Shown here: positions 45,361 through 51,044 of the stretch, piece by piece
Layout of the letters: each line of letters opens with the position of its first letter
Numbering within the stretch: position 1 is the first letter of the stretch
Origin: a virus
DNA length: 64,000 nucleotides
IMG/VR virus record: IMGVR_UViG_3300045996_001458
Location: 1 to 64,000 of that record
Direction: 5' to 3' (one strand)
The notes under the pieces: model-generated
The model's database searches: none
What the model was told of the DNA's origin: nothing
What the model saw: the letters and a program-made list of their open reading frames with translations, nothing else
Translations under genes and position numbers: made by a program

Positions 45361-45570
45361 TCACGCCACCGCCTCGCTGTAGTTCCGGGTAGTGGTGCCG
45401 TCGTCGAGGAACCAGACGCCCGGCCTGCCCGGGACCGGGCCGATCTCGACCGAGTCCAACCGCACGCCTCTGTCCGTGCGCTCTCCGTCGACCGGGATGA
45501 AGAACTCCCAGCGGTCACCGGCGCCGACGAAGATCCCGATGTACTGGATGGCGCGCTCGCGGTCGGTCAT
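45361..45570 (-). CDS. hypothetical phage protein
   Basis: Operon context. Confidence 0.5.
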   Translation of the reverse strand: MTDRERAIQYIGIFVGAGDRWEFFIPVDGERTDRGVRLDSVEIGPVPGRPGVWFLDDGTTTRNYSEAVA

Positions 45571-45784
45571 CACGCACCCGCCCGGAACGTCGGCGAGTCG
45601 GTCTCCATGCGCCACGCGAACATCAGCCGCACCAACGGGTCACCGGTGAGCGCGCGGGCCTGCTCGATGTCACGCCCGCCCAGAATGGAGAGCAGTCGGT
45701 CGTCGGCGGCGATCACGTTGTGGGCCTCGCGGACCCCCCCGGGGGACGCGGGGAGGTACGCGAGGAGTCTGCGGACGAGGGTGA

Positions 45785-46030
45785 TCACGCCGCACCGTCC
45801 ACCGGCAGCGGCCCGTAGGGCACCACGTCGAACGTCACGCGGGTGGTGTCGGTCTCCGTGTCGTACACGGCGTGCTTCGGGGTGAACTTCTCGCCCATCG
45901 TGTTCGGGCCGACGATCATCGTCGGGAACGACCGGGCGTCGGCGTACACCACACCGGGGTAGGTGGCGGCGAACTCCTTGGCGAACTTCACTGTGGGCTC
46001 CTCGGCGGTAGGAGAGGTACGGGGGTTCAT
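45785..46030 (-). CDS. hypothetical phage protein
   Basis: Coupled to upstream TasA-like gene. Confidence 0.55.
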   Translation of the reverse strand: MNPRTSPTAEEPTVKFAKEFAATYPGVVYADARSFPTMIVGPNTMGEKFTPKHAVYDTETDTTRVTFDVVPYGPLPVDGAA

Positions 46031-46920
46031 GCGGCACTCGCCCTGTCCGGCCCGGGCGCAGGGACGTGCACATCGGTGACGCCGTGCAGTCGTCGGGCCT
46101 CGATCCACAAGTCCTTCAGCACCGTCTTGGCGATGGCACGCAGAGCGCGACCGTGCTGGTGCGCGGGCGGCAACGGGGAGCCGACTTCGGCCGGCTTGCC
46201 ACTGGGTCCGCATTGTTTGCAGGGCACGTTGTGCACCGCGTCGGCGTACTTCGCCCGCGTCTCGTCGTAAACCGTGCGGTACTTCGAACCGGACGGGGCC
46301 TTCACGCACGAGGTGGCGATGAGCCACGCCCGCTTGCGGGCCTCTTGGGACCAGTTCGACTTCTGTCCGCGCGTCCGCTTGGGCGCGGTTGAATGGCTCC
46401 CGCCAGCGTTCACCATCTGGGTTTCGAGCACATAATGGCTGGCGGGAAGTTGGGTCCCAGTGGTGCGGGCGCCTTGGGTTTCGTCGCACGAATGACCACT
46501 GGGAAGTGTGTGGTATCCGCAGTACGCCCAGAGTTCGGACACGGTGCGGGGCCGCTGGTGCAGGGTGTTCCAGTACGGGTCGCCGATCTCGCCGAGCAGG
46601 CGGGCCAACTGCTTCTCGCCGACGCCGGTGGCCTGTTTGATCCACGGACCCCACTGCGAGCGGCGCATGTGCGACTGGAGCTGCTTGATCGCCTGGTCCT
46701 CCACGGCGGCCAGCGCTTCCAGCGACAGCGCGATGCGCTTCACGTCACGGTGGTCCTCGGGGAGTCCGAGGCTGCGGCGGATGCCGTCGTCGTCCACCTC
46801 GGTTGAGGTGAGCTGACGGAACCGGTTCCCGCTGGCGACGCGCAGGGACTCAAGGTCGTCCACCTGGGACGCGAGGATCTTCAGGAGCGGGTCGAAGAGC
46901 AGACCGTTGGGGTTGTTCAC
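46027..46920 (-). CDS. TasA-like RNA-guided DNA-binding protein (IS110/Nop-domain, no nuclease domain)
   Basis: Coiled-coil N-terminus; GVGEKQLARLLGEIGD (IS110 Transposase_20-like HhH), SELWAYCG, PKR.RGQ..NW, YRTVYD...KY, H..ALR..AK.VL.DLW; no DEDD RuvC domain; AAAGGAG RBS; adjacent guide array. Confidence 0.85.
   Translation of the reverse strand: MNNPNGLLFDPLLKILASQVDDLESLRVASGNRFRQLTSTEVDDDGIRRSLGLPEDHRDVKRIALSLEALAAVEDQAIKQLQSHMRRSQWGPWIKQATGVGEKQLARLLGEIGDPYWNTLHQRPRTVSELWAYCGYHTLPSGHSCDETQGARTTGTQLPASHYVLETQMVNAGGSHSTAPKRTRGQKSNWSQEARKRAWLIATSCVKAPSGSKYRTVYDETRAKYADAVHNVPCKQCGPSGKPAEVGSPLPPAHQHGRALRAIAKTVLKDLWIEARRLHGVTDVHVPAPGPDRASAA
46398..46504 (-). ncRNA. two TIGR-like stem-loop guide units embedded in frame in the TasA-like CDS
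   Basis: stem-(T/C)CA-9 nt-CGAAACCCA-9 nt-C-stem', CCCAACT linker, 57-bp period. Confidence 0.85.
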
Positions 46921-46937
46921 GGTGACTCCTTTGGTTA

Positions 46938-47225
46938 CCGACCAGGGCGCATGTCATCTGGGTTTCGCATCGTCATTGGCCCGGTCGGGAAGTTGGGTGC
47001 CGAAGGCGGTCCCGCCATGGGTTCCGCAAGCACGTTGGCCTTCGGCAAGTTGGGTGCCCGGACGGAAAGACCTTGGGTGTCGGACGGCCTTTGGTCCGGG
47101 CAATCTGAGTGCCAGCGGGGCGCAGGCTGTATGGGCCTCGGCAGGAGCGTGGCCCGGCTGGCGAGTTGGGATGCCAGCCTGACGGGAACCCTTTGGGCTT
47201 TGCGTACATCCTGGTCAGGCTGGCA
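46938..47225 (-). ncRNA. TIGR-like stem-loop array, 5 units with paired 9-nt spacers
   Basis: Each unit: 9-12 bp stem, CCA, 9-nt spacer A, loop repeat (CGAAACCCA/CGGAACCCA/CGACACCCA/CGAGGCCCA/CAAAGCCCA), 9-nt spacer B, C, stem'; linkers CCCAACT. Confidence 0.9.
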
Positions 47226-47230
47226 AGTCA

Positions 47231-47725
47231 TCAGTGCTTCAACACCTCTCGACCGACCTCGGGGTCGAGCGATGCGACGGTGTCCACCCCGAACTCCGTC
47301 ACGGCGGTCAGCAGGCGCTCGTAGCGCTCCGCCTCCGCCAGAACCTCGGCGGCCTTGCTCCGCCGCGAAGAGACCAGGTACTCCAGGTCCCGCGCGGAGC
47401 AGTCACCGAGACGCTTCCACGACTCGCCCACGTACACGGAAGCGGAGAGTTCGGCGCTGTACCAGTCGATCAGGGCGGCCGTCGCGGCACTCGCCGTTCG
47501 CTGACCGGACTTCGTCTTGTACGTCGCCGGATCGGCCGCGGGCTGCACGACCGGGCGGGACAGGACGTGGCGGACGTACTCCCGCAACGTCACCGACACC
47601 ACCACGTGCGCCTCGGCGTCCGTCAGGTTGGACAGCAACTTCTCCGTGACCACACCGGGGTCCGGGTCGTGCTTGCCCAACTCGGCGATAGCCGTCCGGA
47701 GATCGCTCGAAGACTCGATGCTCAC
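47231..47725 (-). CDS. hypothetical protein directly upstream of the guide array
   Basis: GTGA overlap with antirepressor; WKRLGDCSARDL motif. Confidence 0.75.
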   Translation of the reverse strand: MSIESSSDLRTAIAELGKHDPDPGVVTEKLLSNLTDAEAHVVVSVTLREYVRHVLSRPVVQPAADPATYKTKSGQRTASAATAALIDWYSAELSASVYVGESWKRLGDCSARDLEYLVSSRRSKAAEVLAEAERYERLLTAVTEFGVDTVASLDPEVGREVLKH

Positions 47726-48552
47726 GCCACACCGTCCTCATCCAGGACGAGCGGAGCGGTCCCACCCATCCGCTTGTGCAGATAGGACAGACCAGCCACC
47801 GTCACCCGCACCTGCGGCTTCGCCGGCACCTCCTCCTTGGTGTAGGAGTCGACCCGCGTACGGGGCCGCAGGGTGACGTGTGCCGAGTGGTTCGAGTACG
47901 GCTTGTCACCGGGGCCGATCAGCCGCCAGGACCGCAGCAGCTCGAACAGCCGGCGCTGGCCGGTGGAGATCGACGGATCCCGGTTGAGGATGTAGGCGGC
48001 CTCCCGCACCGAGTAGTCCGCGCCGGTGTCCGCGAGGACGTCCCACGACACGGCGCGGGGACGCAGCTCGATGACCTCGGCCTCGGCGGTGTCGGCACGC
48101 AGCGCTTCACGATCCGCGCGGTCCGCCTCGGCGATGACCATCTCCGCCAGCTCGCGGCGACCGATGGCAGTGACGTCCACGCGGGGTGCGGTCTCCGCCT
48201 CGCGGGTCTTCACAGCGAAGTAGACACGCGCCTCGGCGACGGCCTTCTTCGTGTCGTCACCGGCCATCGCGGTCAGGTACGCCGCGAAGCGGGTGAGCCG
48301 GTAGTCGTCCAAGCGCTGGTTGCCCCACCGCCCGCCATCACTTCCCGCGGCCAGGAAGTGATGGTCTGCCGAATCGGCACCTTCGACCAGCGACAGGGAG
48401 TACCTGGCCTTGGAGATGACGGCCGCGAAGTTCTCCCACTTCAGGTAGTCCATCACCGGGGCGAGGTCGCGCCCGGTCCAGAACTCGCCGGCCTCGTCGG
48501 TGCGACGGATGGCATCGAACTGGGACGAGCCGAAAAGGGTGAGGTCGGTCAT
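47722..48552 (-). CDS. phage antirepressor (DinD/Bro-like N-terminus + ANT/KilAC C-terminus)
   Basis: FDAIR...EFW.GRDL...Y..WENF...DYRLTRFAAYL.AM.GD..K; YSVREAA.IL...GQRRLF..LR, VRVT..GL. Confidence 0.88.
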   Translation of the reverse strand: MTDLTLFGSSQFDAIRRTDEAGEFWTGRDLAPVMDYLKWENFAAVISKARYSLSLVEGADSADHHFLAAGSDGGRWGNQRLDDYRLTRFAAYLTAMAGDDTKKAVAEARVYFAVKTREAETAPRVDVTAIGRRELAEMVIAEADRADREALRADTAEAEVIELRPRAVSWDVLADTGADYSVREAAYILNRDPSISTGQRRLFELLRSWRLIGPGDKPYSNHSAHVTLRPRTRVDSYTKEEVPAKPQVRVTVAGLSYLHKRMGGTAPLVLDEDGVA

Positions 48553-48562
48553 GTCGTCCGCC

Positions 48563-48790
48563 TCACGCCGCGTCGGCGATGAGGGCGTCGATGAGGCCGA
48601 GGGCTTCCTCGCCGAACAGCCGGCTGACCTCGGTGACGGGGATGTAGAGGCGGTTGCCGAGGCGGGTGACCGCGATCTCGCCGTTTTGGATGGCGACCCT
48701 GACGGCCTTGACCTTCATGCCGGTGATCTGGGCGAACTCGGCGGGAGTGAGGGACACCCGCTTCGGCCGGGGGCTGTTCTGGGGGGTCAT
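48563..48790 (-). CDS. excisionase / Cro-like HTH protein
   Basis: LTPAEFAQITGMKVKAVRVAIQNGEI...RLGNRLYIP (HTH_17/Xis pattern); divergent from repressor. Confidence 0.8.
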   Translation of the reverse strand: MTPQNSPRPKRVSLTPAEFAQITGMKVKAVRVAIQNGEIAVTRLGNRLYIPVTEVSRLFGEEALGLIDALIADAA

Positions 48791-48920: not shown

Positions 48921-48968
48921 CTCCAGTTGGATGTAGATGGACCTAGTTGGATCGGGCATGATGACCCT

Positions 48969-49364
48969 ATGACGACAGACGCGGGACGTGTATGGCTCGG
49001 CGAGAAGGTGCAGGAGCACCGCAAGCGACTGCGCCTCAGTAAGGAAGAGGCGGCCCGACGGGCCGGTGTCAACGTCAAGACCTGGACGCAGGTCGAGCGG
49101 GGCGAGGTGGTTCGCGACACCACCTACGTCGGAGTCGAGGAGGCGCTGGAGTGGCAGAGCGGTAGCGCAGAGGCCGTACTGGACGGCAACGATCCAGTCG
49201 TGGTCGAGCGCGCCCAGGAAGAGCCACCCGACGAGGTCGCCGAGCTCGCCCGGCTCTTGGAGGTGGTACGGGACAAGTTCGGGGACTCCGTGTACACCGA
49301 GGCGATCCGTGTCGTCGAACGCACACGTACCGACACGAAGCGTGACCGTCACAACCTTGCGTAG
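48969..49364 (+). CDS. immunity repressor (XRE HTH)
   Basis: LGEKVQEHRKRLRLSKEEAARRAGVNVKTWTQVERG...VEEALEW..GS; possibly leaderless (CATGAT at 48957-48962). Confidence 0.85.
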   Translation: MTTDAGRVWLGEKVQEHRKRLRLSKEEAARRAGVNVKTWTQVERGEVVRDTTYVGVEEALEWQSGSAEAVLDGNDPVVVERAQEEPPDEVAELARLLEVVRDKFGDSVYTEAIRVVERTRTDTKRDRHNLA

Positions 49365-49847: not shown

Positions 49848-51044
49848 ATGGGCAGGCCGCCGCTTGAACCTGGCACCGCAGGCAGCATCACCGTCACAGC
49901 CCTACCGGAGGGCGGCCATGTCGCCCGATGCCGGTTCGGCGACTACGACGGCGTCACCCGCCCGGTCGAGCGTCGCGGAAAGAACCAGCAGGCCGCGCGT
50001 GCGAACCTCCAGAAGGCGCTGAAGGATCGCAAGCGACTGGGTGGCGACGGTGAGATCGGCCCGGAGACCTTCGTGAAGGAGCTCGCCGAGCTGTGGTTCA
50101 CCAAGATCGAGGAGCGGGTGGCCGCCGGCAAACGGTCGCCGGGAACCGCGCGGACCTACCGCATCTACATGGACTCGCTCGTGATCCCGCTCATGGGCAA
50201 ACTCCGCCTCCGGCAGGTAACCGTGGGACGAGTCGACGCGCTCATCGCCGCGGCAGTGAAGGAGAAAGGGCCGGGTGCGGCGAAGACCACGCGGGCGGTG
50301 ATCTCGGGCATCCTCGGCATCGCCGTCAGGCACGACGTACTCGACGCGAACCCGACCCGCGAGGCCGAGGTGATCGAGTCCCCCGACAAGAAGCCGGCCA
50401 GGGCGCTGACGCTGGACGAGGTGGCGCTCATACGTGGGAAGGTCCGCAGCGACAAGCGGTCCGCGGCGCGGGACCTCCCCGACTTGGTGGACATGCTGCT
50501 TGCCACGGGACTACGCATCGGTGAGGTCTGCGCGATCACCTGGGACTCGCTGAATCTCGACGCGCGGACTGTCGAGGTTCGGGGGGTGGTGATCAGAGTC
50601 AAAGGCCAGGGCCTCACCATCAAGACGTATCCGGGGTCCAAGACGAAACACCGGACGCTGCTTCTTCCTCGATGGGCCGTCGCGATGCTGCTCGATCGGC
50701 AGGTGAGGCAGATACCGAACGAGTGGAACGTGGTGTTCACGTCCCCAAGGGGATTCCTGCGCGACCCCAGTAATACAAACGCGGATCTGCGGGACGTTCT
50801 CGACAAGGCCGCCGTCGATGATCAGGGCATGGAGGTGTTCCCTGCGATGGAGTGGGTGACGAGCCATGTCCTCGGCCGCAAGACGGTGCTCACGCTGATG
50901 AACCTCGCCGGGCTTCCGGCCAGCGCGGCGGCGGACCAGGCGGGACACTCGAAGGTGTCGATGACGCAGGACCACTACTTCGGCAGGAAGACCACCGACA
51001 CGGGGGCCGCAGACCTGCTGGACGACCTGTTCGAGTCCAAGTAG
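49848..51044 (+). CDS. int: tyrosine integrase
   Basis: LATGLRIGEVCAITW (R), TSHVLGRKT (H..R), AGHSKVSMTQDHY (H, Y). Confidence 0.95.
   Translation: MGRPPLEPGTAGSITVTALPEGGHVARCRFGDYDGVTRPVERRGKNQQAARANLQKALKDRKRLGGDGEIGPETFVKELAELWFTKIEERVAAGKRSPGTARTYRIYMDSLVIPLMGKLRLRQVTVGRVDALIAAAVKEKGPGAAKTTRAVISGILGIAVRHDVLDANPTREAEVIESPDKKPARALTLDEVALIRGKVRSDKRSAARDLPDLVDMLLATGLRIGEVCAITWDSLNLDARTVEVRGVVIRVKGQGLTIKTYPGSKTKHRTLLLPRWAVAMLLDRQVRQIPNEWNVVFTSPRGFLRDPSNTNADLRDVLDKAAVDDQGMEVFPAMEWVTSHVLGRKTVLTLMNLAGLPASAAADQAGHSKVSMTQDHYFGRKTTDTGAADLLDDLFESK

Follow-up and report, generated by a model that had tools for sequence, protein, structure and literature searches.

Can one stretch of DNA encode an RNA-guided protein and, in the same letters, the guides of that protein? 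The window, a 64,000-nt stretch of a virus record in IMG/VR (64 kb), raises this question on its minus strand. Positions 46398-46504 form two 50-nt hairpins that lie inside a 297-aa ORF (46027-46920) and keep its reading frame. The first, unit F (46455-46504), has a 10-bp stem in which 46495-46504 pairs with 46455-46464. Its loop (46465-46494) consists of CA, spacer A (46484-46492), a loop repeat (46475-46483), spacer B (46466-46474) and a final C. The second, unit G (46398-46447), pairs 46438-46447 with 46398-46407 and carries spacer A (46427-46435), the loop repeat (46418-46426) and spacer B (46409-46417) in its loop (46408-46437). Both stems are perfect 10-bp Watson-Crick helices, each specific to its unit, and both 30-nt loops have the form CA-N9-CGAAACCCA-N9-C, with CGAAACCCA as the loop repeat. 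CTT stands directly 5' of the stem of unit F. The two units are parted by the linker CCCAACT (46448-46454, read from the sequence); the linker plus the first stem base gives CCCAACTT, so the CUU motif at the stem base of unit G lies within the linker. From one loop start to the next there are 57 nt, and because 46920 - 46494 = 426 = 3 x 142, both loops begin at codon boundaries (His143 and His162). Both hairpins were present in the minimum-free-energy structure of the RNA from 46380 to 47240. The first-pass annotation had described two complete guide-type units within the effector's own coding sequence, with perfect 10-bp stems, consensus loop repeats and a 57-bp period that preserves the frame. 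All of this was confirmed: the minus strand reads as quoted, linker included, the architecture is that of the upstream array, the ORF is open through both units, each loop starts on the first base of a codon, and the translation offered for the insert is that of ORF 46027-46920.

The array in question (minus strand, 46937-47225), recognized by sequence and hairpin scan, is of the stem-loop TIGR type and has five units (A to E), all with 30-nt loops. These loops start at 47213, 47151, 47093, 47037 and 46978, and none of the resulting spacings (62, 58, 56 and 59 nt) is a multiple of three. A TAA in frame with the gene (46935-46937), an AAGGAG ribosome-binding site (46926-46931) and then the GTG start can be read directly from the minus strand (46926-46937), indicating that the upstream array is not translated here as part of the protein; upstream of the insert, the frame is open for 432 nt only. 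The seven units are tandem hairpins with variable palindromic stems in place of edge repeats. Each carries two 9-nt spacers, both with short box C/D-like motifs on their flanks and separated by a segment of the loop, and all seven loops read CA-N9-C(G/A)NNNCCCA-N9-C. Five of the seven units, both in-ORF units among them, have CTT directly before the stem. Rfam returned no relevant match for 45500-48000.

We scanned both strands of the 64 kb for hairpins whose stem was perfect over 8 bp or more and whose 30-nt loop agreed with the motif at six or more of its eight positions. Five hairpins qualified in the whole window, and all five fell in this locus; units B and E are additional, each with one mismatch or bulge. 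Thirty dinucleotide shuffles of the window yielded a mean of 0.13 hairpins and a maximum of 1, so the hairpin locus exceeds chance. In a covariation test with the seven units aligned by their loops alone, all 12 stem pairs varied on both sides and 84.5% of the cells were paired, compared with 24-46% in slid registers. None of 500 shuffles matched the observed values. These results show that selection acts on the structure of the stems and not on their sequence.

What, then, is the protein? ORF, profile and structure matches identify the gene (minus strand, 46027-46920, GTG start) as tasA, encoding a nuclease-less TIGR-associated protein of 297 aa. NCBIfam NF052498 (TIGR_Tas_endo, equivalog) matched over profile positions 1-215 of 215 with 217.4 bits (cut-off 100), and NCBI names one homologue 'TIGR-Tas system RNA-guided endonuclease'. 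A profile of 33 homologues found TasR (9mty, E 3.5e-19), TasH (1.8e-8) and IS621 (0.43) in the PDB. With the AlphaFold2 model of TasA (pLDDT 82.8, pTM 0.78) as query, the top ten Foldseek matches were all TasR or TasH (E about 1e-7 to 1e-6), followed by the IS621 (E about 2e-3) and ISCro4 recombinases and then by Nop5/Nop56/58. The model predicts a coiled coil (helices 11-38 and 58-87) and then a Nop-like C-terminal domain. Only 10 residues stand ahead of the first coiled-coil helix, which starts at residue 11 and thus leaves no place for a nuclease domain; the protein is a TasA. Pfam gave no match to TasA beyond zf-AN1 at E 0.5, and neither RuvC nor HNH. The word 'endonuclease' in the NCBIfam name does not fit the protein in the window.

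The protein had earlier been compared with IS110 enzymes; that it is one of them is contradicted by the TIGR_Tas_endo score, the TasR and TasH fold matches and the missing nuclease. IS110/IS621 elements do resemble the locus in that their C-terminal domain is a distant relative and a non-coding RNA is encoded beside the gene. However, TasA lacks the N-terminal DEDD RuvC-like domain, the element ends and the bridge RNA, and Pfam Transposase_20 and DEDD_Tnp_IS110 were absent at E up to 1. We rejected an IS110-family transposase on these grounds, and an IS110 mobile element because the gene has a fixed place within phage early operons. The family is labelled 'transposase' in PHROG 4285 and in some RefSeq records (mycobacteriophage and Gordonia phage homologues). 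This label is a misnomer from the distant IS110 relationship, and the present analysis corrects it for phage annotation.

The position of the insert within the fold is specific. In solved Tas structures, the wedge loop separates the DNA strands, and in 9MTY it comprises G210-K230 (Xu et al., bioRxiv 10.64898/2026.09.09.750476). The 38-residue insert of TasA (residues 139-176, with the conserved flanks GYH and APKRTRGQKSNW) aligned between 9mty residues 213 and 214 in the profile alignment, that is, within the wedge. Judged from the model, the insert lies at the wedge tip and coincides with the low-confidence segments 139-147 and 150-182 (pLDDT <50), the only other low-confidence part being the C-terminal tail; a disordered loop, for which an AlphaFold check had been suggested, is thus what the model predicts. 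The proposal that the units lie roughly where IS110 enzymes carry their catalytic serine loop describes the position fairly. The spot does follow the AYxG motif, but the alignment to IS621 that would extend the comparison is weak (HMM, E 0.43) and stops at that motif, residue 236. The catalytic serine of IS621 lies a few residues beyond this end. At the wedge tip, then, the DNA has a dual use, with an open coding frame and an intact guide architecture in the same letters. The best explanation, and in our judgement a very probable one, is a phage stem-loop TIGR-TasA system with two further guide units inside the tasA wedge.

The source of the window is a temperate phage or prophage of actinobacteria, whose minus-strand early operon runs from a Cox/Xis-like HTH gene through an antirepressor, a PHROG-4604 gene and the five-unit array to tasA. 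The first is a Cox-like excisionase/repressor HTH (PHROG 575, minus strand, 48563-48790) and the second an Ant-type antirepressor (PHROG 130/63, minus strand, 47722-48552). On the plus strand, a divergent repressor-like ORF (48927-49364) and an integrase-like ORF (49848-51044) were assigned from their ORF translations only. This context is a temperate-phage immunity/early region, in which the TIGR-TasA module forms the fourth and fifth elements of the early leftward operon. The PHROG-4604 gene (minus strand, 47231-47725, 164 aa) ends 5 nt before the array and is the conserved left neighbour of array and tasA in Gordonia and cluster-A-type mycobacteriophages. NCBIfam had no match for its product; BLASTP found homologues in a Gordonia phage (L001:1593-2084, E 6e-21, 33% identity) and in gp75 of BPBiebs31, a cluster-A-type mycobacteriophage (L002:1687-2148, E 6e-13). 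The PHROG-4604 protein may be a TIGR-TasA partner. No terminator-like site was found on the minus strand between 45900 and 49000, and no promoter-like site on the minus strand inside tasA by a sigma-70 consensus scan, which in a high-G+C organism leaves room for separate internal promoters. From the sequence, co-transcription of the array and tasA is plausible. Among the public runs in which the stretch was detected, none is listed as RNA. A promoter-like site on the plus strand inside unit G (46409-46436) was treated as chance.

Is the in-gene arrangement peculiar to the window? Related loci were collected by an alignment-based contig search, a single-protein query having given no matches. 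At the DNA level, they comprised IMG/VR contigs and loci of Streptomyces, Kitasatospora, Actinomadura, Parafrankia, Micropruina and Gordonia phages. Among 120 homologues, the anchor-to-anchor length of the wedge clustered at 14, 29-36, 46-52, 66-69 and 86-89 aa. The relatives have 0 to 4 units at the wedge in steps of ~17-20 aa, and the hairpin count in the DNA (0 to 4) follows the wedge length, each length step being one hairpin with a 30-nt consensus loop and a stem of its own. At the protein level, the closest relatives (74-77% identity) differ, with 1, 2 and 3 units. A length polymorphism in 19-aa steps had been anticipated at this loop, and the homologues indeed vary by roughly 19 aa per unit. 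A logo of 598 hairpins from about 88 related loci retained CA at loop positions 1-2, CG at 12-13, CCA at 18-20 and C at 30, together with two fully variable 9-mers. As a separate observation, the related loci L049 and L053 have a 34-aa wedge insert with no guide-type hairpin, so not every wedge expansion consists of guide units.

We then counted the constraints that the reading frame imposes in 72 non-identical loci with 57 wedge units and 250 upstream units. All 57 wedge units were in one common reading phase (phase 0) and none contained a stop codon, compared with 35 of the 250 upstream units that did. Wedge units were spaced by 57, 60, 63 or 66 nt, whereas upstream spacings covered all residues modulo 3. 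The expectation that in-ORF guides are limited to stop-free multiples of three is therefore met by every wedge unit and not by the upstream units. The G+C content at the three codon positions was 0.58/0.64/0.55 in wedge spacers and 0.70/0.47/0.82 in the tas core. Wedge spacers are without the GC3 bias of the gene, and their composition is like that of the non-coding upstream spacers. This guide-like composition indicates that intragenic units follow the rules of guides and, as coding sequence, pass only a minimal filter (an intact frame free of stops), which is of use when arrays are to be built into tas genes or removed from them.

The strongest competitor to functional in-gene guides is that the two hairpins in the ORF are inert relics: units of the array that the gene once took in and now tolerates as a disordered loop, without any functional guide arising from them. 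The insert is not needed for the fold: many relatives, those of mycobacteriophages included, have a 10-15-aa wedge with no hairpin, and the cluster-A-type mycobacteriophage homologues have a minimal 12-aa wedge without hairpin and a hairpin array upstream nonetheless. CTT at the stem base is rarer in the wedge (12/57) than upstream (99/250), and intragenic units in general may be less efficiently processed, as far as this motif tells.

The target searches, too, would suit relics. We searched the 82-kb virus record for sites matching spacers A and B in either of the two tandem geometries, allowing gaps of 0-2 and at most 3 mismatches, using units A-D, F and G (unit E was lost at the stem filter). 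Five matches were obtained, against about 2 expected by chance on a rough estimate; all had 3 mismatches, one was the unit itself, and none belonged to the in-ORF units. Exact 18-mer targets of F and G in IMG/VR amounted to 1, 2, 5 and 11 matches, with no nameable target among them: the three for unit F are at chance level, and those for unit G all lie in contigs of 35-47% G+C.

Several observations nevertheless speak against relics. Units F and G are undecayed, with perfect stems and full-consensus loops. Across the 72 loci, wedge units have diverged in their spacers but retained the guide motif and complementary stems that are specific to each unit, and the spacer composition is guide-like rather than codon-like. 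In addition, tigRNAs processed from the intragenic units of BlTasA are present in its purified RNP (Xu et al., bioRxiv 10.64898/2026.09.09.750476). Taken together, we consider inert relics unlikely.

A second possibility is that the hairpins are mobile palindromes in the style of the Rickettsia palindromic element or a MITE, settled in a tolerant loop and unrelated to the function of the protein. In-frame palindromic insertions within genes do occur in other bacteria, and a tree of 70 rows, built without the insert, requires 24 or more changes of unit class, so that wedge units are frequently gained and lost. Mobile palindromes would, however, have to account for the lack of any unit elsewhere in the window, for the restriction of units to sites beside or within tas genes in all loci examined, for wedge units that always occupy one loop in one phase, and for an architecture that equals the published TIGR stem-loop guide. 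We regard this possibility as very improbable. Least credible of all is that the repeats are double-stranded DNA sites for the encoded protein, an origin or operator array rather than RNAs: the locus does lie in an early region, the usual place of replication genes, and the lambda origin inside gene O is a precedent for repeats within the gene of their binding protein, but the conserved pairing of unconserved stem sequences, with covariation in 12/12 pairs, argues for a single strand that folds, the protein is an RNA-binding protein of the Tas/Nop fold, and stem-loop units of the same type are processed RNAs in relatives.

The stem-loop TIGR-TasA reading agrees with what has been published on related systems. 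Stem-loop TIGR arrays have variable palindromic stems, two 8-12-nt spacers and box C/D-like flanks (Faure et al., Science 2025, PMC12045711, section 9). The first-pass annotation knew of no characterisation of guide units inside the effector gene; this is now outdated, since in-frame intragenic stem-loop tigRNAs are described in sections 5 and 11 of Xu et al. (bioRxiv 10.64898/2026.09.09.750476). In BlTasA of Bifidobacterium longum, that preprint reports tigRNAs embedded in the CDS, two of them in the wedge loop, from small-RNA-seq of the purified RNP (Extended Data Fig. 4g). It also characterizes TasA as an RNA-guided transcriptional repressor and places a CUU processing boundary motif at the stem base (section 11). 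The window locus is a further example of the published arrangement and a correct independent re-discovery of it. It shares with BlTasA a nuclease-less actinobacterial TasA, an upstream stem-loop array, two in-frame wedge units and an insert predicted to be disordered, but differs in belonging to a soil-type high-G+C prophage of another host lineage. The relatives of the window TasA are found in Streptomyces, Kitasatospora, Gordonia and Mycobacterium phages. The family statistics on phase, stop codons, spacing, GC3 and copy number are an addition to what the cited sections of Xu et al. give.

Other characterized systems are more distant. PlTasA, from a Peromyscus leucopus gut contig, likewise has variable-stem hairpins with two ~9-nt spacers and box C/D-like motifs, and a dimeric TasA with coiled coil and Nop domain (PMC12045711; Guan et al., bioRxiv 10.64898/2026.08.11.744272). 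Its array, in contrast, consists of three subarrays parted by a ~450-nt intergenic region, and the passages of these sources used here mention no in-gene units. TaTasR (PDB 9MTY) and SpTasH (PDB 9VZX and others) share the Nop-like fold, the wedge loop and tandem-spacer guides, but they are dual-repeat nucleases with RuvC or HNH domains and conserved edge repeats instead of variable stems. The wedge of TaTasR is short (21 aa), and the portions of the literature consulted report no guide units inside the TaTasR and SpTasH genes.

How might such a locus work? By analogy with BlTasA and other stem-loop Tas systems, the operon transcript would be cut near the stem bases to release hairpin tigRNAs of roughly 50 nt. 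These would load on a TasA dimer, and each of their two 9-nt spacers would pair with a different strand of an 18-bp DNA site. As TasA has no nuclease, binding of the site and a block of its transcription are the proposed outcome. Release of tigRNA F or G would at the same time sever the tasA transcript, so that guides and TasA would be made at each other's expense from one RNA, with a possible limit on the synthesis of TasA. It is plausible that the system regulates itself through the shared mRNA; Xu et al. (bioRxiv 10.64898/2026.09.09.750476) suggest a coupling of tigRNA maturation and Tas translation, there too as an inference. A negative feedback that depends on Tas itself is speculative. 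A wider proposal is that TasA limits itself by guide biogenesis and that, in addition, the in-gene spacers turn over as cassettes behind an in-frame, stop-free filter. We hold this combination to be possible but doubtful.

The common wedge phase is compatible with cassette turnover, and so are the patterns seen in two Kitasatospora prophages and in one soil contig. The two prophages have the spacers of the first unit in common (9/9 and 8/9 bases); those of the second unit differ (5/9 and 3/9), with an almost identical stem. The contig, from a soil metagenome, equals the window at 190 of 191 positions over 46218-46408 and then has another 9-mer at spacer B of unit G, after which a near-identical loop repeat follows (plus strand, 46408-46429). 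It is a single contig of depth 2.6 with 21 overhanging letters, and it hints at an exchange of spacers between near-identical phages. Contigs from four soil metagenome runs were short, and none spanned the insert to reveal variants in unit number.

TIGR-Tas systems are compact, PAM-free, RNA-guided DNA binders under development as tools. With five guides outside tasA, two within it and an evident ribosome-binding site, and with 0-4 intragenic units in close relatives, the present locus is a clean natural test case for a possible competition between the maturation of guides and the translation of their effector on a single RNA.

Further observations were made on the ends of the wedge and of the gene in relatives. 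In L015, L035, L073, L074, L019, L076 and others, the last wedge unit has a 3' arm that overlaps with the conserved G-V-A-P codons and a 5' arm that encodes H-P-G-G. This overlap explains why the stem of the last wedge unit (e.g. CCACCCCGGCGGC with GCCGCCGGGGTGG) is nearly alike in distant loci; to judge by these sequences, protein and RNA constraints are coupled at this unit. Upstream of the gene, many relatives have an array that is open and in frame with tasA, and 80 of the 250 upstream units are in phase 0 in a continuous frame. In the Gordonia phages BENtherdunthat (L001:2081-3355) and Spooky (L003:2084-3340), the annotated protein has 418-424 aa, and its first ~140 residues are the translated upstream array. 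Long 'disordered N-termini' in TasA could thus be genuine or artefacts of gene calling. Finally, further in-frame guide-like units were found at the 3' end of tasA, or just downstream, in P0005, P0008, P0081, L007, L017, L035, L041, L054, L064 and L084, where they show as C-terminal tails with an H/Q...D/E-T-Q signature.
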